The notes beneath the pieces are model-generated. The model searched no databases. It saw nothing but the letters and a program-made list of their open reading frames with translations, and was not told where the DNA came from. A stretch of DNA of 64,000 nucleotides from an uncultured Nitrososphaerales archaeon (GTDB taxonomy: Archaea; Thermoproteota; Nitrososphaeria; Nitrososphaerales; Nitrososphaeraceae), in NCBI GenBank assembly GCA_963713605.1, contig CAVQMO010000010.1, forward strand, positions 992,001 to 1,056,000, read 5' to 3'. This document shows positions 26,536-52,450 of this stretch, in pieces. Each line of letters begins with the position of its first letter. The first letter of the stretch is position 1. Position numbers and translations under genes: made by a program.

Positions 26536-26636
26536 AGAATCAATATTACTTTGGACCCTTGGGTCCATTTTAAAGTGGGTTCAAAAGACTTAGTATCTTC
26601 AAAGAAGATCAACCAACAGTAGCACAAACTATAATA
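26536..26636 (+). repeat. att-like dispersed repeat, copy 1 (left arm A, core, right arm X)
   Basis: AGAATCAATATTACTTTGGA-CCCTTGGGTCCA-TTTTAAAGTGGGTTCAAAAGA...; left part shared with 52402, right part with 28032. Confidence 0.8.
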
Positions 26637-26651
26637 TGAAGCTCAATCTAT

Positions 26652-26890
26652 TCAATAAGAATATTTAAAGTTTATGATAATTAATCGTCTGAAGAATGCA
26701 TCTGTCATATCGTCGGATTCTGGTATCTTGTTACACGATAGGATCAACTTCGCACAATTTCTGAACTTGAACGATGTCTTATACTTGATTTCCGCAGGGT
26801 ATTGATCGTTGCCAGTTAATTTCTTCAATTTTCCAGTATTTCCCTGCATTAATCCTATTAACCTTTTTGATGATGCAAATATTTACGTTC
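26652..26890 (-). pseudogene. P4/D5-family primase-helicase (SF3) fragment
   Basis: KLKKLTGND..AEIKYK..F...AKLILSCNKIP..DD.TDAFFRRLIIINF. Confidence 0.8.
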
Positions 26891-27079
26891 TTGGCAACAA
26901 TACACATAGGAGTCGATAATGATATGCTTTACACCGAATTCGTCAGCTGGTGATTTCTGCAATTCTATAAGTTGCTTTTCGGTAGCAGAACCGATCTTTG
27001 TTGGCGAGATTTATATCGTAACAAAACCAATTTTGAAGAAGCTTTTTAAAGAATAAATTATTAGAGGAGGTGAAATAAT

Positions 27080-27673
27080 ATGAGAAAAATAATCGTCTTA
27101 TCAATGATTACATTAGATGGAGTAATGCAAGCACCTGGTGCACCTGAGGAAGATACATCAGGCGGTTTCAAATATGGCGGTTGGGTTGCACCTTATTTTG
27201 ACGAAGTTTATGGTAACGTCATGAAAAAACAGATGAAACCTGCAGATCTTCTTTTGGGCAGAAAAACATTTGAGATTTTTGCCCACTACTGGCCAGAGCA
27301 TGAAAATGGATGGCCAGGTATCAATGATGTCACAAAATATGTCATGTCCAAGACCATGAAAAAATCAGATTGGAAATACTCAGTTTTCTTCAAAAGCTTG
27401 GCAGATATCGAAAAGCTCAAAAATTCAAAAGGTTCTGACATTCAAGTTCACGGCAGTGGTGAGCTCATTCAACTGCTACTTAAGAATGATTTAGTGGACG
27501 AACTCTGGCTCAAAATTTACCCGTTGACTCTTGGTAGAGGAAAAAAGTTGTTTGACAATAGCACGATTCCGGCAGCATTTACATTAATAGAGAGTTCTGT
27601 TACACCAAGTGGAGTTATTATTGCCAATTACAAGCGAGCTGGAAAAGTCAAGACAGGTATTGTTGGATCTTAA
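27080..27673 (+). CDS. Dihydrofolate reductase-like (RibD C-terminal) family protein
   Basis: ITLDGVMQAPG.PEED..GGF.YGGW, LLLGRKTF, VHGSGELIQ, LVDEL; SD GGAGGTGA upstream. Confidence 0.9.
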   Translation: MRKIIVLSMITLDGVMQAPGAPEEDTSGGFKYGGWVAPYFDEVYGNVMKKQMKPADLLLGRKTFEIFAHYWPEHENGWPGINDVTKYVMSKTMKKSDWKYSVFFKSLADIEKLKNSKGSDIQVHGSGELIQLLLKNDLVDELWLKIYPLTLGRGKKLFDNSTIPAAFTLIESSVTPSGVIIANYKRAGKVKTGIVGS

Positions 27674-27996
27674 GGAGAAATAAAATGAGAAAAAATAATT
27701 GTTTCATCAGGGGGATGGAGGTCTCCCACTCTTCCCCTCACTCCAACCATTCAGCCAACCATTATAAGACTCCAACCATTATATGATGTCGTCACCTTGT
27801 CTAGGTTATTTCACCTTCTCAATTGCAGAACATAAATGGTTGAATCACAACCTTGGTCAAATATAATGACTTATGCCGAGTTCCAATCATTCGCATTTCA
27901 ATGGCAAATTTCGTATGTATGTCCTTGCGTGACTCTTCTTCAGACGACTGGCGTATAATACAAACACGGATGTCCTTTATGAGGATACTTATGATT

Positions 27997-28118
27997 TGAG
28001 CCCAAACTTTAAGAGAAAAATGGTTCACACACCCTTGGGCCCACTTTAAAGTGGGTTCAAAAAGATAACATAGCATTAACTTTACAGAAAGTCAGCCAAC
28101 AATAGCATTAACTATATT
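27997..28118 (+). repeat. att-like dispersed repeat, copy 2 (left arm B, core, right arm X)
   Basis: TGAGCCCA..AAAATGGTTCACACA-CCCTTGGGCCCA-CTTTAAAGTGGGTTCAAAAGA; contains the palindrome CCCACTTTAAAGTGGG. Confidence 0.8.
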
Positions 28119-28311
28119 ACGATCCAGTAATGCAAGACTGTGGCATTAGTCAATCAGGATTACAACAGGAAGAATCGTGACGTTTTGGATGCTTCAATAA
28201 CAATCATTGCAGTATTTTTGTTTGCTATGTCAGTGAATCTACTTTAGATCATCACACAGCTGTTACCGATGTGTACGCTCAACCCTAAGTAGAGACAGTG
28301 AAGTATAGAAA

Positions 28312-28347
28312 TCTCGTAGAATTTCTAAAACACTTTAAAGTCTTGCC
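28312..28347 (-). promoter_or_regulatory. Orphan near-copy of the ferritin promoter region
   Basis: 32/36 identical to 37861..37896, including TTTAAA (TATA-like). Confidence 0.55.
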
Positions 28348-28582
28348 AAACCTCCTTGCGCCTCAAAAGGGAGTCAGACATGCTCCTGGCTGATCCAAAA
28401 GTCATGAACGCTGCTGTGTAACATCTGTGAGCAATATGAGACAAGGTTAAAGAATTCTTCAGTCCAATATTCATGTCAAATGGTTCACACCACTCGCAGG
28501 GGAAAAGGAAGGTAATAGTATAATAGGCGCTACCAAACGGAGGACAATCTTGGAGAATATAATTATTCACGTATTTGCTATT

Positions 28583-28986
28583 CTATGTTTTAGAAAATAG
28601 AGGTGAAAAATCTGCGTATAACCTTACCGAAGTTAGTAACCCTTCCTCATTTCTATCTAAATATCCTACTGCATTTACAGTGATTTCATTTCCATCATGT
28701 AAGGTGAAATGGTTTAGTATCTCCGGTGAAAAAGATGAATCAATACCATAGATATTTAATAATTCATGGCCATTCCCGTTAAACGATTTCCAAAGTGAAG
28801 TAAGATGTTTATAATTTGATCTTTTCCATTCACTGGTGGATTATTATTTATTTGCAATGTACAATCATCAAATAAATAGCTTGTATAAGATTTAACAATG
28901 GTATTCAAGTATCCTAGATACCACTGAAAGGCTTGTTCCGAAAGTTGATTTATTCTGAGTTTATCGCTTCTTGTTCTTGTCTCCAT
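28583..28986 (-). pseudogene. SnoaL/NTF2-like protein, frameshifted
   Basis: DDCTLQINNNPPVNGKDQI, then HELLNIYG...EITVNAVGYLDRNEEGLLTSVRLYADFSPLF in another frame. Confidence 0.65.
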
Positions 28987-29406
28987 CTAGAAATCAAAAT
29001 TTAATGAAATACTATGATATTTAACTTTTGATTTGTTGTATAATAAACAGATAAGACTTGTGACTTCACTATTCAGTCTTCGCCCTTAAATTGTTTTGTC
29101 ATTTCTAACTTTGGTGCCGTGATCCTATCAATGCCATAATTTTAAGTGAAGTAGGTTCTGTTACTATGGTATAGAACCTTGCTGTTGCTGCGAGGTTGTT
29201 CCTGCTGTTGTTGCCCTTCTGGTTTCATGTTAGCAGATTATTAGTTAGTAGCTAGCATAATGAGCGTTGGCAAAAAAAGGTTTCCCTTAGTCGTCACTTA
29301 CTATAAAACTTACCAAGATTCGGTTCTTACGCCGCCCTAACCTCCATTTGGATTTATTCAAACTTAAAAGAGGCGCGATACATGGATCATTGGAGGACCT
29401 GAAAAT

Positions 29407-29853
29407 ATGACGTCTCCTTTCGTCTATGGGCCTAAACACTTGACCTTTGTGGTAATCCCATTCCTAGCTGTAATGTTAATTTACGATTCGACTCTTGATT
29501 TTGTATTTGAATCCTCAACAGCTTTTCATTTCTCTCTTAAGAAAAGGAGTACTAATAAGGACGTTAGTCAGCCCCATCGTGACAAGTACGAAATCTCTAA
29601 AGATATTCTTCTAATGGTTTCGAATGCTAAGTCAGCGAGTCGTCATAGTACTAAAACAAGCATTGGAAGTGATACCGGCATGTCACACGGACTGACGTAA
29701 CTTGTACGTTAGATTATTGGTCGACCAAGATTTATTGCGGGTATCGCAAGATTCCGGACCCTATCGACATTACGAAATCACAGAAAAAGGTCTCCACTTC
29801 TTGCAGATATTCGCTGAAGTGGAGGACGATTTAAGGCATTCCGACCATCAATA
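29407..29853 (+). CDS. Winged-HTH protein (archaeal HTH_45-like); frameshift near 29698; start uncertain
   Basis: HRDKYEISKDIL...TKTSI, continued by LLVDQDLL...YEITEKGLHFLQIF. Confidence 0.6.
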
Positions 29854-30210
29854 GATGAATATGTTTAATTACAATCATCTAAAAACTCTATCAAAGTAAT
29901 AAACCGGGTCAACAGATAACCATAAAAAAATTATTAGATTTATTTCCAGGTTGTTGATACCTCAGAGATCTTGTTACTGATTTGGTTCGCCCTCTTCCAT
30001 TCTTAAACTGTCCATTTGAGATACCAAAATGGAGATCTATCTTTTTCCAATTCTTGAGGAAGATGAGTCGCTAGCAGGAATTTGGACCTCAAAACGGAAC
30101 CATAGGTGACTAAATGATTCTACGAAGTTATAGACAGGGACAAGGACACCAATAATCAACAGCACTGGGTCTAACAACATACTTATTAGTAACGGTGGCT
30201 GACATTCTTC

Positions 30211-31129
30211 ATGACGACAAATATAGTGCGGTATTCTTTAGTAGCCTCCGCTTCTATCCTCTTTTATACTCTTTTCTCGGACCTTGCATACTCGCAGGCT
30301 TCAGACTATGAGCTGCAAGAAATCAAGCCCGGCGTATATGTGGTATCTGCAGGCGGATCCAACTCTATGTTTTTGGTGACTCAGGAGGGAGTTGTTGTGG
30401 TCGACGCGCCGCCAGCGATAGGTGACAAGATATTTAGCAGTGTCGAATGTCACAGATAGGCCTATCACTCACCTGATATACAGTCACGCCCACAAAGACC
30501 ACATAGGTGCTGCCAACCTATTTGAAAACGTCACAATAATCGCTCATAACGAAACCGCCAAAATTCTGAATGAAAGAAACGACACGAATAGACCGGTGCC
30601 GGACATGAATTTCTCTAAGGAGATGAACTTACCAATAGGCGACCAAGTTATCCAGCTCCTCTACCCTGGCCCATACCACCAACAGGGTAATATCTTTGTA
30701 TATCTCCCTGAACACAAAGTTCTGATGGCAGTAGACAATGTTGTGCCCGGCGGCCTCCTATGGAAACACCTTGGCGTTACTCCCGACGTGCCCGCATTAA
30801 TCAAATCGATTGACCAGGCTCTGGCTTTGGACTTTGACGTTTTTGTGGGGGGACACGGCCAGCCTGGTACAAAGCAAGATATCTTAGTACAGCAAGAGTA
30901 CGTAAACGACCTGCGCGAAAACGCCATGGCAGCCCTAAATGAAGTCAATCGCACAGAGGTCATTCAAGGCATAAATGGTAGCAACGCGATAACCGAGGCA
31001 TACTTTAACGCCCTTACAAAATCGTGCGCCGATAAGATAGATGCAGAATGGCAAGGTAAGCTGGAAGGCGTAGGTGTGTGGACAGATGAGCACTGTGAAA
31101 GGATGATAATTAGCGAACGAGTTGATTAA
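30211..31129 (+). CDS. Secreted MBL-fold metallo-hydrolase; frameshift near 30430
   Basis: Signal peptide, VVVDAP, YSHAHKDHIG (HxHxDH), VGGHG. Confidence 0.85.
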
Positions 31130-31635
31130 CTTCCTCTTCTTTTCAGCTCCTCCATTGGCTACATTTCGCAATTTACCAAATGTTAGAGTCCTACTAGCTA
31201 CCATAAAATTCATCACCTGAAACCACTTGAGGACGCTTAACCGTGCTAGGTGTATGGATGATCCTAATCCGCCTTACAAAGGAGCGGAAAAGGGAGTGCG
31301 AAGATTCATGAAGATAACGACTTTAATGTTCCTATCGCGGAGAAGATAATGGTCGGGTAATTAGGAAACATAGAGCATCCAATAGCGCAAGAGCTATTAG
31401 ATATGCAGAAGAAATGACAGTCAGTTGTTCTAGAAATTAATCCAAAGTGTTACTCAACTTGGGATTACAGTACCACATAGGCATTCTTGATCGTTTCATT
31501 TTGGTGTTTTAGTTAACACGGGCGGTAAGCGGTAGCTACTGGATGCATTATTTCAACGTACCGGGCGAACTTCGGGATTCAAAGTACCCGGTGGCGCTTG
31601 ATAGTTTCCAGATCATTCGTTTTGCTTGATGACTG

Positions 31636-32395
31636 CTATCGAGAATCTCGTATGTACTGGTCGTGCCGCCGAAACCACAGCCCCGTTTCATTCCGCCCGT
31701 TCGGTGCACGGTCGAGCCACTGGTACATTCCCCAGAGCGCGTCGAGGCCGCGCGCGTAAGTGGAGTAGGTATGGTAGACGACGCCGTCGGAGAGTGCGAA
31801 CGCGCTCATTCCCGGCGCCTCGCGGGTGTAGGTGGGGACGTCGGTGCCGGTCATGGTCGCGAAATCGCCTACGCCAGCCGAGTCGGGTGTCGTGCCGAGC
31901 GTGCTGTAGTTGTAGTCGATGCTGCCGGAGCGCTGCCTGCTCCTCAGTGAACGAGGTGTTGAAGTCGTAATTGAAATCGCTATTCAGCGACGAGGCCCAT
32001 GTGAACGTCCAGCCCATGCGACGCTTGTAGCCCTGGAGCGCAGCGATTGGGGCGCGTGAGACCGCGATCATCGCGACGTCGTGGTGCTCAAGGTGCACGG
32101 CAAAGCCGTTAAAGCCGTCCGCATTCGCAGAGCATGCCGGGCAGCCGCCTGTGTTATCGGGACCAAACATGAAGTGATAGATGAGGAGCTGTGAGCGTCC
32201 TCTGAACAGATCGGCAAGAGACGCCATGCCATCATCGGTCTCGAAACGGTACTCCTTGTCAATTCGAACCCACGGCAGCCTCTGCCGCCACTGCGCCAGT
32301 TCGTCGCTACGCCGCGTCAGCGCCTTCTCGGCCTTGAGCAGCTCCAGCCGGGCCGCAAGCCACTCTTCACGTGTTCCGATCTTGTGGTCAGTCAT
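31636..32395 (-). CDS. DUF899 family (thioredoxin-like) protein, high GC; frameshift near 31930
   Basis: REEWLAARLELLKAEK, LFRGRSQLLIYHFMFGP, CPACS, YHTYSTYARG, LDRAP.GRNE. Confidence 0.9.
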
Positions 32396-32467
32396 TGTTT
32401 TTTGTTGTCACTTCTAGTATTTTATCATTATCTTAATATCGTCTACAGATAAGTTATTCCTATGATC

Positions 32468-33135
32468 ATGAAGGAAATTAGAAATATAACTCCTACAGAA
32501 TTTGAAGACTCCGTAACATATATGTTTCAACTTTTCCTTTAGAAAATGCTAAGCATTTAGACATATACATCAATCATATCTACGACATGCTCAGAAACGA
32601 TAGCAGATATCATCTATATGCTCCCGTAGAAGATAGCTCTATGATGGGTATCTCTTTGTTATATATTTTTGAATATTTAAAAATGGCGTTACTTGATTAT
32701 ATGGCAGTTGTCCCAAATTTTCAGCGGCGTGGTATAGGTAAAAAGCTATTTGAATTCACAAATAACGAACTTAATCGCTTTATTTCAAATAATATAGGAA
32801 TGTTGTTAGAAGTACCGAAAGTAAATGTATCTAATCCTGATGAATGGCTAAGAAGGAAGAGAAGAATCCAATTTTATTCCAGGTTAGGAGTAAAAGTATT
32901 GAAAGGCGTTAACTATTTACTTCCAATACAAACAGATGGAGATGTAGAAGAGATGTATCTGATGATCAAACTTTCAAAGAATATAGCTTGGTTATCAAAA
33001 AAGAGTATAGCTGATTTCATTAATTCTGTATATACAGATCTTTATGACTATAGAAAGCCTGATTTGCTTAGCAAAACCATCGCTAACTTGCCTGATGTCA
33101 TTGACATTGAGGAACTGAAAGTGCAGGATTCATGA
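32468..33135 (+). CDS. GNAT family N-acetyltransferase; 5' part frameshifted
   Basis: LLDYMAVVPNFQRRGIGKKL (motif A), RRIQFYSRLG. Confidence 0.8.
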
Positions 33136-33809
33136 AAGGAACACTACATAGAATACTGTTCTTGAGAGGTCCAATAGCCTAGTACTGTCATATACTATTG
33201 TTCAATATTTTTAAACATCATATTTAGTACTATAACATCTGAATCTCTATGTTACTAAGGATATATCATTGCATATTCGATATTGCATTCTTTTTTTAAA
33301 AGCTAACTGGAATTCATGTCGTAGTTTCAGAAAAAATAGAAAGACAATGCTAGCATTTTGTTTACTCTGAGTAACGTGGAATCTAGTTCGAATTTATGAG
33401 GACTTCTAGTTTGCTGTTCTTGTTGCATCAGCTGCGCGATGCAAGACTTATTCCACCCACGATCAATGCCATTATTATTGCATATTTTTCTCATATAATA
33501 GTTAGACCAGAGATGCTCCATATCCGCCTCTGATCAACGTTGATGACGTATTGCAAGCTAGCGTAAATATATCTTTATAGAAGATACTTCTAATATATAC
33601 TATGTGAGATTGTGAGGCAGTAATTATGAATAACAATTCCCAGCTTTGGTCTGGCACTAAGATTTATGGCCCAATATTGACATTTTTCAACGTATATGGA
33701 AATAGTTTATCTATATAGAAAGATCAAATGATCTGGAAAAAGATATTAAACTAGTCTATTAATTTTGTTCAGCCTGAATACATAAAAGGCGCATAATTGA
33801 AATGCAGTT

Positions 33810-34193
33810 ATGGGTTCTACTCTCTGCGTTAGATGCGGCGCAATTCTTATCCCCCATTCGCTTTGTAATATATGTCACGATATATTATATTTTACATGCT
33901 CATCATGTTCCATGAACACTGATGAAAGAATTCATGTTTATTGCCGGGATGGTGATACCATTAATAATAATGATAAAGATATAAATCTAAAAATTACATA
34001 CAAATTGATTGAAAAACCAAAATCGTCTCAGTTAAACCAAAAACAAAAACAACAACTTACTGATGAATTAAAATCTAGTTCAATTGATTTATCTGCATCG
34101 TATTGGAATAATATATTTGACTATTTTAAAATGGTTAATCGTTATTGGACCGCAATATTCTATATTGGTATCAATAAATCTTCTATAATATAG
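33810..34193 (+). CDS. Cys-rich zinc-binding hypothetical protein
   Basis: CVRC, CNIC, CSSC, HVYC. Confidence 0.6.
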   Translation: MGSTLCVRCGAILIPHSLCNICHDILYFTCSSCSMNTDERIHVYCRDGDTINNNDKDINLKITYKLIEKPKSSQLNQKQKQQLTDELKSSSIDLSASYWNNIFDYFKMVNRYWTAIFYIGINKSSII

Positions 34194-34679
34194 CGAAGCG
34201 GATTCTATATGCAGATACTATGGAATGATCTTCACGTCTGTTGATGCCAAAACATTAAGTCCAATCTAAAAAAGTCGAATATGTCGTCATGACTAGTTGC
34301 TTCCTTATCCAGAATACAATTGCCATTCTCGACCACTGACCGTAATGCAGTGATTAACTAAGATATTCTGCAATTGATATGGGATGGAATACCCATCCAG
34401 AGTGGTAGCTGAAGTATCAAAGTCGGATACGCAAGTTGGGATTGCAACTGTCAAAATAATACATATGATGACCAATCCTACTACCGTTGTGGCTATTAAG
34501 CATCCATTCTGAGATGCAAACCCCAGAGACATATCCTGACTTCGGAAGCCATCCGCATTCTTTTTGTACCAACTAACCTGCGTAACTCTTATATGATACT
34601 TCATTGATTAATTTTTCAAAACTGGGCTAGCAATTTGCATATCACACTTAAATGCAAATGATAATTGTATGGATAACTT

Positions 34680-35774: not shown

Positions 35775-35840
35775 TGAGCCCAATTTCTAGGTCGAAAATG
35801 GTTTACACACCCTTGGGGCCACCATAAAATAGGTTCAGAA
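35775..35840 (+). repeat. att-like dispersed repeat, copy 3 (left arm B, core, diverged right arm)
   Basis: TGAGCCCAATTTCTAGGTCGAAAATGGTTTACACA-CCCTTGGGGCCA-CCATAAAATAGGTTCAG. Confidence 0.75.
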
Positions 35841-37178
35841 CGTTTAAAAGCTCTCTTTGTGATTGAGGCTTATGTGTTTAGGGGTGAGGTATTTCAACCG
35901 ACTTTTTGCCCGGTAACTCATATCGTATATTCGTCGAGGGTCTGAAATCTCCGGTCGCATAGTTTTGCTCTTCAAAAATACATTAACTATCTAAAGATCA
36001 GCAAAACAAATGAATTGTTAATTCAAATCCCAAGATTGCGCAGGATCAAATCATTGATTACCTCATCCATTTAGAAAATCCTCCTCATTCATTAAGATAC
36101 GCCACCGGGTACCCTAGACAGCAATCTGCTAGCGAGTATGGAGCTCCACGACAAATACCAGGATAGTTAGTGTTCTGTGGAAATATAATAATCACTAATT
36201 TGATAGATAGACTATCTATAGTTAATAGCCAAATAATATTGTTGTTATCTAATACGTGGTACCATAGGAATGACATCTATAATCAATAAGGAACCAGCCT
36301 CGCATAATAGACCTAGCAATCTACCCAGCATTCTAATCTATATTATTCCTATCGACCCAACAATAAGTCATATTTTAGTAAATCTTATTTTGGATTCTAT
36401 TATTTTTATAAATAATTTTATGAAGATATCATCAGTTTGATACCGTTACCTGCAATATTCAACCAACTGAACAGAATGTTAGTATGCTTTGACTATTGAA
36501 ATTTCGATTACTTGTCTAAAACACTTCGAATGACATAACTAGATTGTTCCCCAAGGATTATCGATGATCATACGCCATGTACCGTCAGACTGTTGACGTA
36601 GGACATCAGCGAGCGGTCCCAGTAAGACTAACAGGATTACCATCAGTTCCTGTTCCATTGAAGGACCATCCACTAATCACTAGAGCAAGATTACTTGTCT
36701 GAATTATTCTCATTACTTTTAATTCTAACTTGCCTTTCATGTCGATAAATCCTTAGTCTTTGGCGTACGCCTTGTTGATCTTTGACAATTTGTCCTGGTT
36801 GAAAAGCAAAACATGCCTCGATAACTGCAGAGTTAAAGAATGGGTGATACAAAGGATGAGATATGACAAGTATCTAAATAAGGTAATAGGAAAAGTCTAC
36901 AAATCAAAAATGAAACCCGGCGGATTGTAATCAGATATCATGTACGGATTGTTCATTCAAAAGAGTTAAATCCGTATTAATGAGTTCAGGAAAGAAGGGT
37001 AATAAGATTATCCTTAGCTTATCTAAAGGATCATTTCCTTAGTGTATGAGTTCCTTAATACTTTAAAAAACAGTATTTTTTATCGTAACCTATGCCTATC
37101 AGGAACATCGATAATGGTTCAATACCAATACTACATATTCTGTAATCGGTAATGAACCCCTTTACATACGGGAATCTA

Positions 37179-37236
37179 ATCTTGTTGAACACAATTCTTC
37201 GATAATCATCTTGTTGAACACAATTCTTCAATAATC
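37179..37236 (+). repeat. 29-bp tandem repeat x2 downstream of ferritin
   Basis: ATCTTGTTGAACACAATTCTTC(G/A)ATAATC twice. Confidence 0.9.
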
Positions 37237-37291
37237 ACCTTATCTACCTCCAAAGCTGTATTTGTGATAACAACTCTCTCAAAAAGTAAGT

Positions 37292-37843
37292 TCAACTCGA
37301 GCTCTGCTTCTTAGCCGATACCTGAGATCTAATTGAAGCCAGGGATTGATCAATTTGATATACCGCCAATTTCTCTCTGCCAAATATCTCAAACTTTTGA
37401 AGGATCGTTTGAAATAGGATCTCTTCTTCAACTTGTTCGCTTACAAACCATTGTAAGAACAGGTATGTAGCACGGTCTTTTTCTTTTTCAGCAATTTCTA
37501 CTAAGCCGTTGATGAGCATAGTAACAGTCTGTTCACTCTGCAAAGCGGATTGAAAAGTAGATTCTAGTGAATCGAATTTACCTTGCGGTCTTTCTATTGG
37601 TGGAATTATAGCTTCGGCTTCAGCATTATTAAGATAGTGGACGAACTTTAACATGTGTGTATTTTCCTCAATTGCTTGTTCAAAAAAGAATGTTGCACTT
37701 CCATCATATCCAGTTCTTTCACACCATGATCCCATCGCAACATATGCATTGATAGCTGATGCTTCATAAGCAATTTGATCATTGATCGCTTTTTCCATTT
37801 GTGATGTGATTCTCATTCCAACAACCTTAGTATTTTTTGGCAT
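37292..37843 (-). CDS. ftnA: Non-haem ferritin
   Basis: QIAYE..A..Y, EENTHM, EQTVT..IN.L and FLQWFVSEQVEEE ferroxidase motifs. Confidence 0.92.
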   Translation of the reverse strand: MPKNTKVVGMRITSQMEKAINDQIAYEASAINAYVAMGSWCERTGYDGSATFFFEQAIEENTHMLKFVHYLNNAEAEAIIPPIERPQGKFDSLESTFQSALQSEQTVTMLINGLVEIAEKEKDRATYLFLQWFVSEQVEEEILFQTILQKFEIFGREKLAVYQIDQSLASIRSQVSAKKQSSS

Positions 37844-37965
37844 GTATATTTTTTTTGGTTTCTCGTAAATTTTTTAAGACACTTTAAAGTCTTGCCGGTG
37901 TAGAATAATTAAGCAATCTAACCAAGTTCCATCTCTTGACTTCATAGGGATATCAATGGTGTTTA

Positions 37966-40140: not shown

Positions 40141-40753
40141 TAATGATGGCCAAAGAACTGAATCTCTTATCCATTAAAAGATAAAACCATAATGTTATGT
40201 CTTCGAATGTATCTTCATCTAAAACTTCAACTGAGAGACCTTCCCTGATATACTAAAGTTTTCTTGATCTTCGGTAATTTTCGAACGATAATAAGAAAAC
40301 TGATTGATCAACAAGCGAATGTATTAGGTGAAACTGTGGACAATGTGTAAGATCCAGGATCAGGACTCTTATGTCAGCGCCACAACACTTTAGGGCAGAT
40401 ATTTATTTACCTGGGATTTATCACTATTTTCAATTGTAATGCCTTTTGAAGTAACGATAATGAAGTGTTCTGTATTATACTTTTCCTTGTACTGCTTGGC
40501 TTTTTCTATATCTTTTGATGGTACGTCTTTCCCTGTTTTCATATCCCAAGGAATCGGAGTGCCTGCAAGCCTATTTATTTTCAGACGGAAAAGCTAGAAT
40601 CCACTTTCTGGCGAATTCTATGCGTTCTTTTGAAGATGCTTAGTAACAAGCCATTTTTAGTATATTAATATTCAAAAATATGGAATTCATAATCAGAATT
40701 ACTATTAGGCACTCACTGATATGGCTTAACAGTCAGATCTAGAGATGTATTGC

Positions 40754-41464
40754 TTATGCGAATATTTTCTTACGTGCAACCATCTCATTCTCAAGAAGAT
40801 TACTCTGATATTGGATACTCCTTTGTAAATAATGATTATTCCGAAGATCATCGTCATTATACAGAGTAATACCATTGATTTCGGAAGAGTATTTTCTTGT
40901 TGTGAAATTTCTAGATGGATCATCGACGTCAACCAAATTGCAATGAATCAAATGATATATTAGTTTGGCAGGTTTGTAAAATACCCTTTCTATGTACCTT
41001 TCCCTAATGAAATCTGGCTTTTCAAAATGCTTTTCAAATATTTTGATGCCATAAACATCTGGTGTATCCTTCATTTTATCATTGATAGGAGCACCAGTTT
41101 TGTATTCTTTAATCTTGGCAAGATTTTTAGAAAACTCATTTGCGTCTATAATCGCATACTCGTCTGAATCAATAACTAGAAGAAAATCTATCTCTTTGGT
41201 ACCGGCAATTTCAAGATACTTGTTTCTCTTATCTATTTCAGTAAGGTTAGGGTAGCTATAATAAATTGCATTAGGAAATGATTCTACAACTTTTCTTGAA
41301 TTATCAATACTGAGATCATGATCGTCATCAAAATGCTTGAACTTTCCATCGATTGCGATTATGAGATCGACATATGATTGTATGGAACTCAGACATCTCT
41401 GAAGTCCTTTCTCATCATCAAAGAATACAATTCCAGCAGCAGTTGTTACTATTTGGTTATTCAT
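40754..41464 (-). CDS. GT-A/GT2-like glycosyltransferase, copy 2 (identical to 13311..14021)
   Basis: Same 236-aa protein; no nucleotide difference found by eye. Confidence 0.65.
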   Translation of the reverse strand: MNNQIVTTAAGIVFFDDEKGLQRCLSSIQSYVDLIIAIDGKFKHFDDDHDLSIDNSRKVVESFPNAIYYSYPNLTEIDKRNKYLEIAGTKEIDFLLVIDSDEYAIIDANEFSKNLAKIKEYKTGAPINDKMKDTPDVYGIKIFEKHFEKPDFIRERYIERVFYKPAKLIYHLIHCNLVDVDDPSRNFTTRKYSSEINGITLYNDDDLRNNHYLQRSIQYQSNLLENEMVARKKIFA

Positions 41465-43026: not shown

Positions 43027-43197
43027 ATTTACATTTATGTTGAAAAAGGGAGTTAATATTTACTAGAGACTGTATCTTAGTTTTTACCAGAATAAGCTAA
43101 ATGCGTTCTTTTTACTAAAAAAGTATTTAGATTTGAATACTTTACATATTGAGGTCACATTTTCCAAATAAGAAGAATTAGGCTTTATAGTCTTTGC

Positions 43198-43379: not shown

Positions 43380-43392
43380 AATACAAAAATTC

Positions 43393-43686
43393 ATGGGTAT
43401 CATATCGGATAGGACAAAAAGTTCAGGAGCCAACAGAGTACTTCATGTGGATCAGTTGGATGTTCTTCTAGACGGAGCTCTCAGCTTAGCAACCAATTTT
43501 GAGTATGACATTTTCAAAGAGGTCTTACAAAAGGAAGGTAAATCGTACGACCACGACAGAAGCATCCAGCAAGACGGTTTCCTCAAAACAGCAAATTCAT
43601 TTACCCGAGCGGGTAATATATCTACACAGCAAGCTCAGCAAATAATTCAGAGGCTCCCATATCCTGTGCAGGCCATAAAGGCATAA
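43393..43686 (+). CDS. Hypothetical protein
   Basis: 97-aa ATG ORF directly after the structured segment. Confidence 0.45.
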   Translation: MGIISDRTKSSGANRVLHVDQLDVLLDGALSLATNFEYDIFKEVLQKEGKSYDHDRSIQQDGFLKTANSFTRAGNISTQQAQQIIQRLPYPVQAIKA

Positions 43687-45159
43687 TTGGGATGTGCATA
43701 GAATCCTAGCTAACCATTTAAAGATGTGATCAAAACTTTTAGGTAGTTATCATGAAGCTTAACTGGTTAACTAAACTAAGTTGGCGAATACATTGAAGAA
43801 TTGCCGTCTACCGCAGGATGTAAGTTAGTATTTCATGTTTCTACCTTGACATAATGGCTAATGAATTCAGAATACTCTTTATGAAGATATTACCCCAGAT
43901 TTTACCCTGCATTTTTCCCCGAAACATGTTATTCTTGCTATTTTTTACCTTGTAGCCCGACCTTTACCCTGAAATAATTATATATTAAGATTTGTTGTCG
44001 AAGCCGATGAGAAAATGACGAAAATGGTAAATATCACAGGATTTTGTATTATCAACAATGGTATTGCCCTTCTTGCATATTACAATTCTTAAGTTTAAGT
44101 TTTACAATTGCAAATGATGATCAACCCAATCAAATTCCAACTAATCAACTGTCAGTCATTTCGCGGAGGGTTGAATAAATGCGCTATAGAAATCATTTGT
44201 TTTGTATGTGTAAACGACCACAAGTGAAGGAAAAGAAGGAAGGAATCGGGAATCTAAGAAATGACTAACTTTATTGTAATTGTAAAAATAAAGATAGACC
44301 CTCAGCAGTATATTGATTCCAGGTATGACGAGTACAAGAAATCAGTCGAGTCAAATCTACTACTGAAGCAAACCTGAGTCCACCCAACGAAACAGAGATT
44401 AAACTATTCGTGAGAAAACTAGTAGTAGATAGATTTTCTCTTGATAATGAAATCAAGAATGTCTATGTGGCAGAAGTATCTCAAGAAGAAGAATCCAATA
44501 AGAAATGACTACGACACCAGAAAGACAACAACAGGAGAAGAGGCTGGTCTTGTCAAGTAAATTATCCAAGTGATAAGTGTGAATATGAGAATACAAATAA
44601 GCAGGAGGGAACGAGGTACTCCTAAGGTAACGTCAAAGAAGTGACCGAATGGCCGAGTATTTCTATTGGAAAATGGCCCTTGTTTACAGTCTCAAGTTTC
44701 GTCACCTCTGATAAATCGGAGATTAGCAGACATTTCTTATTCTACAAGGTTTTGAAACTATATGGTTCATTGGCTTTGAACCTGAATTAGATTTCGAAGC
44801 AGACAATGAGAGTGAAGTATTTATCACGATGGAAGTCGGCCAAGATGGATGCGAACCACTTGAGCCAGATAAGACAGCATAGTGAAAAAGATTTCAAAAA
44901 CAGACAACTCAAAATAGTTGATCAATAAAAAATGTTCGCTAGTTAAAGGCCAAGAATATATTTTTAGACAGTTCCGTAATCTCATTGGCCAAGGATAATG
45001 GGTTGCATCGTGTCATTTTGTCTACACTGGTGAATGAACATTGAGCGGCAAACCTCGTTGGGCTTGTGCTATTTGTGGAATGTATTCTAGAAGAATATAC
45101 ATTGTTAAGCGTCATGTTGCCAATGCGCATAATGGTTTATCAATACATTGTCTCATTCG

Positions 45160-45410
45160 TTGATTATTTAGCTGGTCTGTCAATGATGGAATTATTGAGT
45201 GCGCTAGGAACGCTGGAAATGATGGAATAGCCAGGAGTCAAGGTAATGACTTAGTACATGGAAATGAAGGCAATGACATTGTTCAGGGTAATGAAGGTAG
45301 TAATCAGATATTTGGCGACAGTGGTGTAAACACACTAACTGGTGGCCCTGGGAGAGATACCATCCTTTGTGAGCCAAACGGAGGTACAATCACTGATTTT
45401 CTGATGTGAG
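45160..45410 (+). pseudogene. Hemolysin-type (RTX) Ca-binding repeat fragment
   Basis: GNAGND..SQGNDLVHGNEGNDIVQGNEGSNQIFGDSGVNTLTGGPGRDTILC. Confidence 0.7.
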
Positions 45411-45909
45411 ATCTGGAAACTGTATACTAGCGTCAGCATCCCCAGCATCATCAAATACAGAAGATATGACCAGTCACCAAACCAAAACTTCATCATCACT
45501 CAAAGAACATCATCACTAAAAGAACATGATTCTAAACATAACAATCTGAGTTCTAGTCACTACTCTTGAATTGCGAATTATGAAGCTCCACTGGATCTGA
45601 CATAGTCAAATGTTTGTTAGTGAATTCCACTTGCTGTGAGCATTTTTTGCTTCAGTTCCTATCAGTAGTATATCTCAGAGCAGCAACAGTTGCAACCAGA
45701 AATTCAGAATCAAGCAGAACTGGTTGTCTCGCTTAGTTCTTGAAGGTAGGTAAGATATACAATGAATCAACTAAAAACTGCAGCATTTCTATTCCAATGA
45801 TGAGAAAATATGATATGTGATACATTATGAATGAGCCAGGTACAATTTCGAGCGCAATCAGTGTAGGAAATAGACGTTAGAAAAAGTTTTAAGAATAGTT
45901 GTTGTATGA

Positions 45910-46392
45910 TTGCACACAATGACTTCTGTCAAACATATACCTGATGGATACCATGCAATAACACCTTACCTTGTTGTGCAGGGTGCTGAAAAACTAATTG
46001 ATTTCGTGAAGCAGGCGTTTGATGCAAAAGAAATAGAACGCATGTCAATGCCTGATGGAAAGATAGGACATGCTGAAGTTAGAATTGATGACTCAATCGT
46101 TATGATGGGTGATGCTAGAGAAGAAACGTGGAAAGCAATGCCTTCTTCAGTATATCTATATGTTACCGATTGTGACACAGTTTACAAGCGCGCTCTCGAA
46201 GCTGGAGCTATATCTTTGATGGAACCAAGAGACCAATTCTATGGGGATCGAACCGGCGGTATAAAGGATCCCGTTGGAAATCACTGGTTTATTGCAACAC
46301 ATAAAGAAGATTTATCGAAGGATGAACTTGATAAGCGTGTAAAAGAATACGTCAAACAACAGCAGCAACAACAACTACAACAGAAGCAATAA
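45910..46392 (+). CDS. VOC family (PhnB-like) protein with a poly-Q tail
   Basis: IPDGYHAITPYL, GHAEVRI, DQFYGDRTGGIKDPVGNHW. Confidence 0.9.
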   Translation: MHTMTSVKHIPDGYHAITPYLVVQGAEKLIDFVKQAFDAKEIERMSMPDGKIGHAEVRIDDSIVMMGDAREETWKAMPSSVYLYVTDCDTVYKRALEAGAISLMEPRDQFYGDRTGGIKDPVGNHWFIATHKEDLSKDELDKRVKEYVKQQQQQQLQQKQ

Positions 46393-47145
46393 CTCCATCT
46401 TTATGCGATCGCCTATCGTGAAATAAGAATATTTGACTTGTATGTAATCGGTCTGCATTAGACTATCATCGATGGTTAATTAGAAAACCAATAGAGAACC
46501 ACTCTATCTATCAATTATGGATTAATGTTATAATTTGAAGTATAAGGAATTAAAAAAATAACTTTCTCATTAACTACACAAAGTTACAAATGCCCCAAAA
46601 CTAATCCCTTCAATTGGCGGCTTCACCTTCCACTTTATAACACCTATGTAATCTCCACCTGATAATTAGTACGTATTTATTTGAAATATCTAGATATCAC
46701 ATTAAGTATAATTATGTGATAGAAGACGGACACAAAGCCTATTTGAAATATTGAAACTTGATGATGAGTATGAGAAATCACATTTGACCGTAACAATATT
46801 ATGAGTTCATACTATTCATTATTGTGATTTCAGTTTTATTTGAACAACTTAGAAATCCTATCGAATGGATTACTGATTCGATTATGCTCATCGATGAAAT
46901 TTATCTTCAAGTTTGAACTTCTAAATAATGGAACTCGTTTCAAGAGCCGGTAACGGCACGAATACCCTTGAGTCAGCCCATCCAAAATGAACCTATCCTA
47001 ACCTAGGGATGTTTAGATATAAAAATATCCGAAATGGATAAAATTCAATTTCATCCTTCCTTAGTTTGAAACAAAATAGGATGGTTATGAACCATTCTAT
47101 ATATATCACATTCAAATAATGAACCTATCCCGAAGTGCGGCAAAC

Positions 47146-47331
47146 CAACAGCAGGTAGCATGGCATAGAGACTGGGCACCAGATCTGAGTAGTGAGGAAT
47201 ATGGGGAAATAGCTAGAATTCTGTAAATATAACACCCTACAATCGTTAGGGATGTCGCTTACTTAGGACAGCAGGCAAAGGAGTAAATTGGCAGATACAC
47301 AGAGGAACAACTACAGGCAGAATATCATGAT
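47146..47331 (+). pseudogene. HTH protein relic with three in-frame stops
   Basis: QQQVAWHR...EIARIL*I*HPTIVRDVAYLGQQAKE*IGRYTEEQL; related to 48740..49068. Confidence 0.6.
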
Positions 47332-47466
47332 CTTAATGGTGGTATTACGGAATAATATGGATGAATCAAAAGACTACTTTCTGCTTTATTAAGAGGTGGT
47401 AACTATTCTAACAATTTTATACACAACACTATTAGGAGTATATAGGGATGAGTTAGTGAATATATT

Positions 47467-47823
47467 ATGAAAAATAAGAAAGTCAATAACGACAGCAATG
47501 AAAAGAAAGAAGACGCCAAACTGAAGAAGGAGATTGACTTGGTTAATCCTAATGAAATTGAGTCAATTAGTAATCTATGGCAACAATATTCTCCTATGAC
47601 CTGGAGTGAAACATATAATCAATATATTAAATACACAAGAAGAATGACTGAAATATATAATGAATACGCTAAAAGTTCACAGAGGATGACAGAACTGTAC
47701 ACGGAACTAGCTGCAAATGCAGAGAAGATGACTGAATTGTATAAGGAATCTGCCAATAGGTACAGAAAAAATGACCAAATATTGGTTAGACTTCCTTTGG
47801 ATGAAGCCATTGTCAAAAAATAA
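47467..47823 (+). CDS. Helical-repeat hypothetical protein
   Basis: Three 14-aa repeats MTE(I/L)YxExA; probable 3' frameshift. Confidence 0.55.
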   Translation: MKNKKVNNDSNEKKEDAKLKKEIDLVNPNEIESISNLWQQYSPMTWSETYNQYIKYTRRMTEIYNEYAKSSQRMTELYTELAANAEKMTELYKESANRYRKNDQILVRLPLDEAIVKK

Positions 47824-48059
47824 AGAAGGAAAACAAGAAGAACAATAGGCACTTCAGAGAATGAATTGATGGTATCGACGGTCTTGATGCACCATTAGAA
47901 TATGAAAAAGACAAAAGGAATCTATTGCCTTCATATCGAAAGGTCGTAAATAGGCTCTGGAAATAAGCATTTCGGAGTAGAATGGATGAGCACCGAATTC
48001 TAGCGTACATGATACCATTAGTAGTAAAGTGTATTAAAGAAGCAACCAATTCACTTCTG

Positions 48060-48558
48060 TGTTTTCTAGAAAGGCATTTAATATGTCTGTGAATGTTGTG
48101 GATAGTGATACATCAATCCATGTCCTGCTTCTTCAATCTGTACAAGCCAAGCTCCTGGGATCTTCTGCGCAAGAATCAAGGATTTAGCTACTGGTACAGC
48201 AACATCTTCAGTTCCCGTTACTCAGTGATCAAATACAATAACCTTGTGATTTGATGACAGTTCTTGGGGCACAGATGATGGCCAAATATCCATAACATTA
48301 TTACTACCACTAATGAGTAAAATAGGATTATCGTTACCAAACATCATATATGCAATGTCAATATCATCTAGACTAACTTTTTGTAATGCGAAACCTTGTA
48401 TATCCACCGAATTCGTTTATCAGAATTCACTTGGTCTGGATCTAAATATATTGACTATACACAAATTTATTGGTGCCATCGTTACTAATTAATGAAGCGA
48501 TAATAATTATGGTTGCAGCAGGAATTAGATGAGCCTTCCCAAGCTGCTGTTTGACATA
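48060..48558 (-). pseudogene. Alpha/beta hydrolase pseudogene with an internal deletion
   Basis: DIDIAY..FG...PILLISG...VIVFDH joined directly to TGTEDVAVP...KIPGAWLVQIEEAGHGLMY; nucleophile region missing. Confidence 0.75.
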
Positions 48559-48739
48559 AACCCTAATACGATGCGGACTATTAAGGAACAGACCTGAGAC
48601 CAGGAGATATTTCAGCCCAACATTAAGGTCAAAAATGGTTCATTTGTATGCGGCAGTCAGGTAGTTAAACGTATATGTTGAAAGGTGTAATATTTGCTCT
48701 AGTGGAATACTGAAGGTTTGATTAAGAATGCTAAACAGA

Positions 48740-49068
48740 CGATGCAATGGCAACAGACAACCAGAAGTAGAGTGTTGAAACTTTCAAGTGAGGGCAGGAG
48801 CCTATCAGGAAAGTGTTGCAACCATCAACTCAGATAAAACAGGAAGCTAATCATTGATGAAAGGCTACCATTGGAATATCAGAAATGCCTGATCGGCGTA
48901 GAGGCCATACTATGCAAAACATGGGACATTGCAAATAACTTAGAATCTACAGAAAGGAACAGACTACAAGCTGTCTCGGTAGGAATGCTGGCTTATAGAA
49001 TAAACATAGAGCAGCTAAATCTACTGAAGGGATTACCATTCTATTCTGATTGGCAACACGAACTTTAA
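48740..49068 (+). pseudogene. HTH family relic, second copy
   Basis: RSRVLKLSSEG...IDERLPLEYQKCLIGVEAILCKTWDIA. Confidence 0.55.
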
Positions 49069-49324
49069 TCGAGAGAAAATCACGCTCAAATATCCAGTTT
49101 GCCGTTCAACTATACTATAGGCCACAGAAGAATCCCTTATTCGACTATGAACAGATGTTATATATTCCCTGATGATTTATGTTCCCTGATGCTTTATTCA
49201 GACGCCTTCAGATTGTCGCTACAGTTTTGGCGCTAAGTAGCAGCTTGCTTAACTTCGTCAAGTGATAAAGATAATCAATGGAGATAAGCCTCGTTACACC
49301 AAGTATATAATATTGGCTATAACT

Positions 49325-49534
49325 ATGATTGACGAGCGAAGGTTGCTATATCTGGTAGTTGCGATGGCAGTATTCGCAGCAGCTTTTGCTGTAATGGTGG
49401 GCTTAGTCGCTGCTGAAATAGGGCCAACCTCTTCAGATACAACGGGAACGGAATGTTTGTTCGCAACAAATCTTTGCAATGTAATCTCTGCAGCAGATTC
49501 AAACGATAGTACGTTTTATTCCGATTTATCATAA
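49325..49534 (+). CDS. Small membrane-anchored hypothetical protein
   Basis: MIDERRLLYLVVAMAVFAAAFAVMVGLV TM segment, two Cys. Confidence 0.45.
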   Translation: MIDERRLLYLVVAMAVFAAAFAVMVGLVAAEIGPTSSDTTGTECLFATNLCNVISAADSNDSTFYSDLS

Positions 49535-49678
49535 TTGAAGCTAGGACCAGTTAATCGTGTCAGCTGTTATAACAGTAAATAAGGTCTATCTGTAAACCGA
49601 AAATGTATTGATGGCATATAGTAGTCGAATCAGCAGAGAACGAATCGAATCTGAAAAATGTAATAGTAGTAAACAAAC

Positions 49679-50133
49679 TTACACCTCGCCAACATCAAGG
49701 CGAAATTGAGATGGAGTACATTCATTTGAATGGTAGTCTGATGCGTTTAGGGTTAATGTACATCTCTCAACCCACTGAGATCGCCACTCAGGCGGTTCGA
49801 AAGGATCAGCAAAGTAATACGTCTCACGTGCAACCTTACCATCTCTGAACTCCATGATGCTTACTGCATTGACTGGATGCCCATCATAGGTAATAACTAT
49901 TTCAGATATCCAGAGATTTCCTTCTCCTCGTACCCGTAGGATCTTAAAACTAAGTTTAGCGGGGTAATGTGCCCTGAGTTCATATATGTTGTGTTTACCA
50001 GAGATTCGTTCACCAGACTGTGGAAATTCAACTATGACGTCGTCATGATAAATGTCATGTGATCTGTCTATATCACGAGCCACAGTGGCCTCCCAGTAAT
50101 GATCCAGGCAGCACGTATTTCTTGATTATCCAT
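49679..50133 (-). CDS. NTF2/SnoaL-like protein; 5' frameshift
   Basis: HDIYHDDVIVEFPQSGERI, VSIMEFRDGKVARETYYFADPFEPPEWR. Confidence 0.85.
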
Positions 50134-50189
50134 TATCTTTCCAAACCATATCAAAAGCCTAGATTATTAGTCTTCTCTTCGGTTTCAAA

Positions 50190-50285
50190 GCAGTAGAGAA
50201 TGGCGAAACAATGCTAGATAAGGATGCAACTAATCATGATGATTTGCTGGACGCATTCCGTTTGTCTGTGCAGTTCTGGCATTAG
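50190..50285 (+). pseudogene. Terminase-like C-terminal remnant 2
   Basis: AVENGETMLDKDATNHDDLLDAFRLSVQFWH*. Confidence 0.55.
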
Positions 50286-50559
50286 TATATGCGAGATTTG
50301 ATTCTACTCATAATAACCACCTTAATCTTACATGTTATACTAATATGTGGCGGCTGGTGAAAACCCATCACCAGACAACTGCCGCACAAAAGTGAGTAGA
50401 ATTGAAACATTCGTGTCCACCAGTAGCATCCGCCCAGAGTTGACCAGCGCGTATGTATTAGTCGAAATGTGGCTGGACCAGGATCGCTATATTCAATCAA
50501 ATGATGTCAGGGCGTAGAATCCTGCATCAGCAGCAGATGATGGACCATCACAGCGAGCA

Positions 50560-50930
50560 GCAACCCAAAGCCGAGATTCTAATATCACGTATGAATCTGA
50601 CTCGAAAGCAATATTATTCGCGCATCAAACCGCTTCCGCGAGGTAGGTTTGATTCGTAGGAAGGGAGCTGAGATTTGTTCTTACTTCACTTGGAAAGGTG
50701 GTCTATGAGACCCACAATACAATAGGACTTGCAATCCACAATCGATGGAAACTTCAAGCTATTGATTCACTGGATACATCTCTATCTGCAGAGGGAATGC
50801 CCACTGAAGAAAGACACAAACTTATCAACGCGTTACCTGGAGATCACGAGGTTATAAAAGATATTCTACTCTGCCAGAATCATGTCAAAAAGGAATATAT
50901 GTTAGCAGCCTATATTTATCTACACAGCTT
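50560..50930 (+). pseudogene. Winged-HTH regulator pseudogene, paralogue of 42568..43026
   Basis: ISRMNLTRKQYYSR...WKLQAIDSL spread across frames. Confidence 0.7.
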
Positions 50931-50970
50931 TATCATGAGGTTGTCTGGTAGGGAGCGTTTTTTTACCGAC

Positions 50971-51029
50971 TCTCATGACGACCTATTCAATGCAAATAGG
51001 ATGCGATGTCTCTTCATTTCTGGCATTAA
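50971..51029 (+). pseudogene. Terminase-like C-terminal remnant 3
   Basis: SHDDLFNA.R / MSLHFWH*. Confidence 0.45.
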
Positions 51030-51098
51030 TGATCGACACCACCACCATCATTACCACCAACAAACGTCTAAATATTTAACTCACGATCGAGATTCTGC

Positions 51099-51347
51099 AT
51101 GTCAAGTCCATCTGAGAGAGAAAGGAGACTAAGCAGTCTTGCCAGAAAACTGGGTCACGAACTAGACGAAGATTTTAGAAGGGCGGGGAACAGACTAAAG
51201 GACGTTTTGATTCGTGACTTTGATAAAGAAATGTCGCTAGCAGAGGTATTTGCTGACCGAAATGATCTCATCGAAGCGGCATACCATAGGACGTTGGCTT
51301 ATGCGATACACAATACTCTTAGGGATCTTGAAATGATGATCAAATAA
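51099..51347 (+). CDS. Hypothetical protein
   Basis: 82-aa charged helical ORF with ATG start. Confidence 0.45.
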   Translation: MSSPSERERRLSSLARKLGHELDEDFRRAGNRLKDVLIRDFDKEMSLAEVFADRNDLIEAAYHRTLAYAIHNTLRDLEMMIK

Positions 51348-52177
51348 ATTAGGAACCAGTATACATCTGCAGTTCTGAATTTAATCTGGTAGCAGATGCC
51401 AAGCGTGGTATTCTACTCTCGCTTCTTGGTTGCTATTCTTGTCATTGTCGCTTTGCTTTATGAACTCTGTAAAGTTTGTATAATCCATCATACTGTCACA
51501 GTAAATGCAAATCCATCTCATAGGTAAAGACTAATACTATTACGCACACATTGTTTATATAACATTATTCTATAGTTCCGAAACAATGTTTTATGTCAAG
51601 TCGGAGTGACAGAGAGACATGGCTACTCCATCACAAACCGGCTACTGGGTAAAATTCTGGTCTTATTTCGGAATTGACGAATTAGAGTTCCTTTCTGGAT
51701 CATCATCACATATTCTTGATTGTATATTTGTAATTTACATAATACTTAACTGATGTCTATCTCGGCTGACGAATCATTTAGAATAGATTATAATCTAACC
51801 ACGGGAATGCAGATAAAATTTTACAAGAGCAACAACATTGTTGCTAGACAGCAATCTGTTATCTAGCCAGTATCAATTAATGAATAAAAAATAATCTACT
51901 AATTTGATTCGCCTACGGTTCCATTCATTGCTAGATTGAGCAGTGGCCTAGCAACGTAGTACCGTTTTCGGTGCTAACTATTTATCGACGTCTCTTAGTC
52001 GGTAGTTGCGGCGACGACGGAGACAGCGGTGGGATAGGAGAATGTGACATAACCATGGAAGGTTCAGTAATCTCTGCACCCTAATTTTTCTTTTTCTGAT
52101 GGTTAATGCTATGGCTGAATCTGAAAATGTCTCACTTCTTATTCATATGAGATTATTTCAAGAGTTCATGAAGCACT

Positions 52178-52297
52178 CACAGTATAGGCCTGGATGATAA
52201 TTACTTCAATCCAGAAGAGAATTATGTACTACAAAGATATGTTAAGGCAATTGACAACCTGACCATCAATGAAGAAAATCGTTTACGTAAAGTATGA
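52178..52297 (+). pseudogene. Tyrosine integrase C-terminal remnant
   Basis: HSIGLDDNYFNPEENYVLQRYVKAIDNLTINEENRLRKV*: box-II His and catalytic Tyr spacing, plus a tail recalled from thaumarchaeal integrases. Confidence 0.65.
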
Positions 52298-52401
52298 GTT
52301 GTTCGAATTAGTTTTCATAACTTCTAAATCATCGTTTTTCATAGTAGCATAGAAAAAACTTAAGCCAGTAACCCCTTTACTATTTGTTAGAATCCTCTTC
52401 T

Positions 52402-52450
52402 AGAATCAATATTACTTCGGACTCCCTTGGGCCCACCTACTACGTGGGCA
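52402..52450 (+). repeat. att-like dispersed repeat, copy 4 (left arm A, core, right arm Y)
   Basis: AGAATCAATATTACTTCGGACT-CCCTTGGGCCCA-CCTACTACGTGGGC. Confidence 0.8.

Follow-up and report, generated by a model that had tools for sequence, protein, structure and literature searches.

The Prochlorococcus tycheposon islands arise by insertion at one tRNA, with older elements pushed outward; they contain partial tRNAs and broken integrases and reach up to 200 kb (10.1101/2020.12.28.424599). In Streptococcus, islands built from ICEs (integrative conjugative elements) and IMEs (integrative mobilizable elements) grow by tandem accretion and include cis-mobilizable elements (CIMEs), which are units bounded by attachment (att) sites that have no integrase (PMC5704250). 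In Dehalococcoides, the 100 kb downstream of a single RNA gene, ssrA, holds several tandem islands with direct repeats (PMC3146451), and additive islands and the features of integrons have also been described (PMC4119200). Tandem integration is already known in archaea (PMC8371274), where thaumarchaeal cryptic integrated elements have a tyrosine integrase, short att sites, and tRNA 3' targets (PMC6563490). Here, we analyzed 64,000 nucleotides (the window) from an uncultured archaeon of the family Nitrososphaeraceae, positions 992001 to 1056000 of contig C10 (1.13 Mb) of its genome, G000. The window carries a dispersed 12-bp repeat with shuffled flanks, or arms. We found that the repeats belong to a large array that begins at a tRNA gene, and we conclude that they are very probably hybrid att junctions from successive insertions of integrative elements at that tRNA.

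The array is most likely a tandem accretion of tRNA-targeting elements, an additive island of the CIME type, and not an integron. Like the tycheposon islands, it would combine insertion at one tRNA with outward displacement. Unlike them, as far as that description goes, it is archaeal, has a 12-bp core (about 40 nt there), and has five integrase lineages sharing one tRNA and 24 junctions in one array. A packaging module of the kind found in phage-inducible chromosomal islands was not detected; the hallmark screen returned only a primase fragment and a PolB fragment. The array shares with the Streptococcus islands its integrase-free, att-bounded units and its chimeric junctions, which join elements whose integrases are distantly related but alike in specificity. 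It differs from the Streptococcus islands as described in its one-gene units and its far greater number of junctions, and Pfam detected neither virus nor conjugation genes in 54 proteins of seven elements, at Pfam/PHROG sensitivity only. In this respect, and in having a tyrosine integrase and a short att site in a tRNA, it is like the thaumarchaeal cryptic elements. One of these, NitAQ6f-E1, sits at a tRNA-Met(CAT) and has nearly the same core, and two tandem pairs at tRNAs are tabulated; no site in the table has more than two elements and no element is smaller than 2.6 kb, and arms, large arrays, and integrase-free units are not part of that description (PMC6563490). The Dehalococcoides islands are likewise tandem and marked by direct repeats, with swappable cargo, but they are described with a serine recombinase, DsiB, and one integration module, whereas here there are tyrosine integrases of several lineages. 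The accretion mechanism is known from bacteria, and an integrase-free hydrolase unit described below is the more unusual part. Our search of the literature on Nitrososphaeraceae, which did not extend to subscription papers and preprint supplements, returned no description of such arrays, arms, or cassettes.

Results

A tRNA gene ends in the repeat core.

We searched for sites with arm-specific profiles and with a richer profile set, using the reversed genome as the control. The profiles gave no matches on the control at E<=0.1, and the richer profiles gave 1 control match versus 98 real ones. As stated in the original prediction, which was made from the window alone, there are four 12-bp cores in one orientation (26556, 28032, 35810, and 52424, all on the + strand); a dinucleotide model expects 0.008 in the window. 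Left arm A is present at 26536 and 52402, and left arm B is present at 27997 and 35775 and in a core-less copy at 48609-48642, also as stated. Arm X does follow copies 1 and 2, but its proposed length of ~80 bp was too great: about 30 bp is site, and the rest is the promoter and start of a hydrolase gene. An inverted repeat had been proposed at each core and is weak behind copy 3. The five sites originally listed were recovered, and five others (28313-28354, 28464-28490, 37147-37180, 37862-37896, and 46923-46967), most of them core-less, had been missed, which brings the window to 10 co-oriented sites. Neither an RNA family (Rfam) nor a tRNA gene was detected in the window.

We found that the core is identical to the 12 bases with which the gene for a tRNA(CAU), 168 kb upstream, ends. 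G000 has 14 exact cores, and the copy at C10:850637 forms the 3' end of the tRNA gene at C10:850575-850649, so the suspicion that the core derives from a tRNA end was correct. ARAGORN calls this gene tRNA-Met(CAT). Its acceptor stem starts like that of the G000 tRNA-Ile(GAT), and it is without initiator features; we take it to be a likely tRNA-Ile2. This assignment is not certain because the other CAT tRNA has the same anticodon arm as tRNA-Ile(GAT). Directly behind the anchor tRNA are arm X2 and then an intact gene for a 403-aa tyrosine integrase (PF00589, 35.4 bits; cut-off, 27.1), at C10:850690-851901; the tRNA-proximal element spans C10:850637-881208. The integrase tail reported ahead of copy 4 is a C-terminal fragment (52178-52288), about 105 bp before the arm A of that copy.

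Between the tRNA and the conserved backbone, 24 sites form an array of ~199 kb, with 21 on the + strand and 3 in one inverted block. We detected 63 sites in G000 and removed 4 that were copies in >99% identical contig duplicates. The array thus holds 24 of the 59 non-redundant sites in 4.9% of the genome. Broken integrases sit at its inner junctions, and open reading frame (ORF) coverage is 36%, versus 60 to 67% in either flank, although the frameshifts may partly be assembly errors. The window is most likely the old, eroded end of the stack.

A dispersed protein-binding site, a dif-like site, or the end of a miniature inverted-repeat transposable element would suit the palindromic arms and the 35 of 59 sites that lie outside the array. 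We consider this very unlikely, given that the core is a tRNA end, that the sites are strongly clustered and strand biased, that the arms are exchanged at a single point and integrase genes can be predicted from them, and that homology breaks fall on the cores. Segment borders have no terminal inverted repeats, matches to the XerA model NF040815 reach 28 to 46 bits (cut-off, 220), and there are many copies rather than a single dif. An assembly or binning artefact is also highly improbable. G000 has 4.5% contamination, and its contigs C2, C12, and C13 have 11 to 22 kb in common at >99%, probably a redundant assembly of strain variants. However, conserved flanks enclose the array on a single 1.13-Mb contig, the core with arm X occurs in 8 of 13 congeners (10 of 41 genomes), and in G077, from another genus, the part of the contig upstream of the tRNA agrees at 80% with that genome's own genus.

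The same arm families are found behind other tRNA ends in G000. Arms W, Y, and V with integrase stubs follow tRNA 3' ends at C1:341260, C1:408494, C1:551042, C10:640789, and C10:1124989, and cores of the tRNA-Lys type, displaced and flanked by B, W, or Y arms, are present at C1:6209 and C1:345586. Because of these parallel arrays, our site counts are underestimates. Within the main array, C10:876985-879687 encodes a RadA paralogue and a 516-aa neighbor of unknown family, at a guess OB-fold-like. At C10:863721-863897, arm E is followed by an inverted X2 arm and then an integrase C-terminal fragment, which suggests inversion-type recombination at a palindromic arm.

Right arms predict the integrase lineage.

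We compiled 110 non-redundant junctions, with arm classes assigned by motifs derived from the same data and unclassified rows retained as "?". Five left arms and six right arms occur in 21 of the 30 pairings, including the anticipated B-core-Y combination (6/110). We found that the right arm predicts the gene behind it. Among junctions followed by an open frame, X2 precedes integrase lineage 1 (13/14), Y precedes lineage 2 (14/17), W precedes lineage 3 (9/10), V precedes lineage 4 (4/5), Z precedes a lineage 4-like integrase, here lineage 5 (8/13), and X1 precedes the hydrolase (7/9). Lineages 3 to 5 have 44 to 48% mutual identity, lineage 1 has 29% identity to them, and lineage 2 has a short match only and no match among solved structures. 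Besides the lineage 1 gene of G000, intact genes are found on G008:C33 (lineages 2 and 3), G010:C154 (lineage 4), and G007:C203 (lineage 5). From their profile matches, all five are predicted to be remote tyrosine recombinases, and none is assigned to IntI or XerA. The arm-gene links, the clustering, and the tRNA core bear out the proposal that these are att-type junctions of tyrosine recombinases from repeated insertion.

Mirror symmetry of the paired arms is centered on ACC|CCC for E-X2 (0.56) and C-Y (0.44) and on CCC|TTG for A-Z (0.67), D-V (0.62), and B-W (0.50). The tRNA bases before CCC are kept in arm C (10/16) and arm E (11/14), and in 2 of 45 cases in arms A, B, and D. Arm symmetry and base retention therefore point to two crossover registers 3 bp apart. 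Junctions join different register classes in 37 of 57 cases (p=0.03; rows not independent). TATA-like words occur in arms X2 and E shortly upstream of integrase and ferritin starts, and the arms may also be promoter suppliers.

It had been proposed that the array delivers DHFR-like (dihydrofolate reductase), MBL (metallo-beta-lactamase), DUF899, and GNAT genes in an integron-like manner. A new integron, in which one resident integrase captures cassettes by hairpin attC-like sites, would account for the many co-oriented sites behind an integrase, for one-gene units, and for left arm B ending many unrelated sequences. The array is also like an integron in outcome, as an ordered accessory array growing at one end (PMC4119200). 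Nevertheless, we regard this explanation as extremely unlikely, since IntI, attC, and a fixed integrase platform are all missing. Lineage 1 scores 30 bits with the IntI model TIGR02249 (cut-off, 265), and the other four lineages have no match. None of the four window cores has attC boxes or a stable hairpin, with folding z scores of +0.2 to -1.2, no better than shuffles. The tRNA-adjacent integrase is replaced between congeners, and inner junctions carry integrase genes of their own. Moreover, the cargo is not mostly one-gene, co-oriented cassettes: the MBL, DUF899, and GNAT genes lie within a single 7.3-kb segment on both strands. We also rejected the DHFR-like (RibD_C) gene as a cassette. 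None of 30 RibD_C loci examined (of 48 matches) carries an arm; these include the orthologues at 95% in two congeners, G005 and G006, around which no arm lies within ~1.5 kb.

The tRNA is occupied by different elements in relatives.

At least one exact core, the tRNA itself counted, is present in 92 of 121 genomes; these tallies include G099, on which no claim rests. Within the genus, a genome has up to 14 exact cores; G132 has 12, and controls are near zero. We took the best 30 of the 92 genomes' matches as tRNA loci, 29 of which had downstream sequence, and found an integrase within 450 nt of the tRNA in 20 of the 29. Behind the tRNA, G000 and G005 carry arm X2 and G003, G004, G007, and G008 carry a Y-type arm, and G010 has two tRNA copies, one followed by arm W and the other by arm Z. 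The differing tRNA-adjacent arms among congeners therefore indicate successive occupants. The closed genome G042 shows a simple state, with one 7.8-kb element between the tRNA and one displaced core, and G077 has a stack of four units in 31 kb.

The congener G003 is syntenic with the window only from 57210 on. Before that point, it has six or seven co-oriented sites of its own, and pieces in common with the G000 array stand in another order with other junctions. In closed genomes of other genera, the tRNA and S3Ae are not adjacent; therefore, the neighbor of the empty site is not fixed outside the genus. We rejected prs as a downstream anchor, since the window has a split paralogue (55379-56384; second copy at C1:397448) and the core prs copy is on C1. 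In G008 (C33, 5100-9341 of the locus), a 35-kb element at this tRNA carries a PatG-domain protein with subtilases, astacin, and M43 peptidases as cargo.

An integrase-free hydrolase unit is bounded by arms.

The X1-hydrolase-C unit is 1.57 to 1.60 kb long and encodes a secreted hydrolase and no integrase. The copies on G000:C13 and G077:C16 are 86.6% identical in nucleotides from end to end and have different neighbors, compared with 67% for S3Ae. This suggests that the unit has been transferred between genera. Matches occur in 22 of 121 genomes and 8 genera. We examined 30 hydrolase loci (of 32 places) and found a left junction in 13 (arms B, C, A, and D) and a terminal arm C in 7. Four of the 30 keep both att ends and have neither an integrase nor a transfer gene; in these, the homology ends precisely at the cores. 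The other loci are armless or end in A or D, and the right neighbor is X2, Y, Z, or another sequence in 7. A second, inverted unit ends in B and matches at 77% over 1.55 kb. The window has only a 5' remnant of the unit. Segment 26556-28032 is a mosaic of truncated hydrolase start, primase fragment, and RibD_C gene.

A ferritin gene is fused to arm E in 5 of 30 loci (the window, G003, G005, G008, and G012) and partially in G013, with varying neighbors, and most other ferritin loci have the gene without an arm. The fusion looks like a recent capture next to an element end.

It is possible, if rather improbable in our judgment, that the small units are inert relics. The array would then be a graveyard, with pairings produced by deletions between cores and the hydrolase unit a mere passenger in larger DNA. 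The low ORF coverage, the loss of the core at most window sites, and the many genomes with armless hydrolase and ferritin genes are in keeping with this, and deletion between cores can indeed create new pairings. In addition, none of the 30 tRNA rows has a tRNA|X1 junction, and thus no fresh insertion of the hydrolase unit was seen. Inert relics do not readily explain the loci that keep both ends and lose homology exactly at the cores, the exchange of left and right neighbors, or a cross-genus identity of the unit above that of a core gene. We place movement of the small units on their own at roughly even odds.

Features of the window.

The sites, integrase remnants, and cargo genes are collected in Table 1. 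Further old integrase remnants on the - strand belong to lineage 2 (21480-21862) and lineage 1 (53565-53687). The DUF899 gene (31600-32420) stands out from a background of 38% GC and has a frameshift close to its end; in G080, a copy at 82% has a hydrolase fragment next to it. An identical repeat of at least 300 bp is found at 13306-13605 and 40749-41048, 27.4 kb apart, each copy with a 236-aa ORF without a Pfam match. Two inverted NosD/beta-helix paralogues (4451-5114 and 14152-14818) are 74% alike, and the S3Ae gene has, at its 3' end, a 30- to 31-bp tandem repeat (62936-63070) that encodes a low-complexity tail.

Table 1. Att-type sites, integrase remnants, and cargo in the window (window positions)
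Feature	Position	Strand	Basis or remark
Left arm A, class II element end	26516..26555	+	same arm and upstream flank precede ferritin in G003
Core 1, tRNA(CAU) 3' end, one mismatch	26556..26567	+	sequence match
Right arm X1, truncated start of hydrolase cassette	26568..26655	+	
Primase/helicase fragment, mobile-element replication remnant	26652..26849	-	DUF5906 E 7e-9; PHROG primase E 9e-18
RibD_C (DHFR-like) cargo gene	27080..27673	+	not an att-bounded cassette in relatives
Left arm B and core 2	27997..28043	+	
Right arm X1 and 5' remnant of secreted alpha/beta-hydrolase cassette	28044..28314	+	84% aa to G077 hydrolase, residues 2-56
Left arm E, degenerate core	28313..28364	+	
Left arm B, core lost	28454..28490	+	
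Cargo: MBL-fold (+), DUF899 (-, 59% GC), GNAT (+)	30211..33135		inside one 7.3-kb segment
Left arm B and core 3	35775..35821	+	
X2-type right arm, then broken integrase N-terminus (lineage 1, 35850-36152)	35822..36152	+	55% aa to intact gene at C10:850690
Left arm C, core lost	37147..37180	+	
Ferritin gene fused to arm E	37292..37843	-	same fusion in G003, G005, G008, G012
Left arm E, core lost	37862..37896	+	
Left arm D, partial core	46923..46973	+	
Left arm B, core lost	48609..48642	+	
Integrase lineage 1 C-terminal fragment, region of catalytic His and Tyr	52178..52299	+	68% aa
Left arm A and core 4, last site of array	52382..52435	+	
Y-type right arm, as in integrase lineage 2, without the integrase gene	52436..52479	+	
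Conserved backbone resumes	57210..64000		syntenic with G003:C2 at 80-89%; includes S3Ae

Discussion

According to our model, each element carries an attP made of left arm, core, and right arm and would integrate as a circle at the tRNA. This would produce one junction of tRNA, core, and new right arm and a second of new left arm, core, and old right arm, and the second product would therefore appear as "shuffled arms." New insertions at the tRNA would push older elements outward, and deletion would decay the older units into integrase-free pieces. Class I integrases (lineages 1 and 2; arms C/E with X/Y) are predicted to cross over within ACCCCC, a 6-bp stretch of the T-arm, and class II integrases (lineages 3 to 5; arms A/B/D with W/Z/V) are predicted to cross over 3 bp further on, in CCCTTG. 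Integrase-free units may move in cis or in trans; the hydrolase unit above all likely still travels as an att-bounded cassette, through an integrase supplied in trans or together with a neighbor, as CIMEs do.

Several observations weigh against this model. We infer its main steps, and no excision, circle, or recombination product was observed. Lineage 1 is without the His of the H-x-x-R motif. The C-Y symmetry is near the background of 0.35 to 0.47, and the two ends of one segment are class matched in 21 of 32 cases, which is a trend only (Fisher p=0.06; rows not independent). Many of the sites outside the array are core-less and some belong to other tRNAs; the remaining ones may stem from secondary insertion or rearrangement. 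Of 16 hydrolase homologues in G000, 7 have an arm within 700 bp and 9 have none nearby, and the missing tRNA|X1 junction counts here as well. Viral contigs contained no related integrase or site, and most of the relatives are fragmented assemblies.

A wider version of the model is doubtful. It holds that the tRNA end is a common dock for five integrase lineages in two registers, that inner junctions are recombinogenic, and that one-gene cassettes (secreted hydrolase and ferritin) are excised, reordered, and traded between genera across the family. If true, such cassette exchange would be the integron's functional equivalent, double stranded and based on a tRNA, and one of the main ways in which these archaea build large accessory genomes.

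The Nitrososphaeraceae are probably soil ammonia oxidizers. Sequencing runs with 0.2 to 0.48 of the words of one 10-kb stretch are recorded as soil or rhizosphere, which we did not use as evidence. The array offers a natural case of distantly related integrases that have one target in common, with two predicted registers, and of single genes captured beside an att arm. The matched sets of integrase, attP, and attB with predicted cut positions might be used to develop integration tools for a group without them. For the family itself, the array represents a probable, concrete route of accessory-gene gain, with about 5% of G000 in one array and the same arms at other tRNAs.

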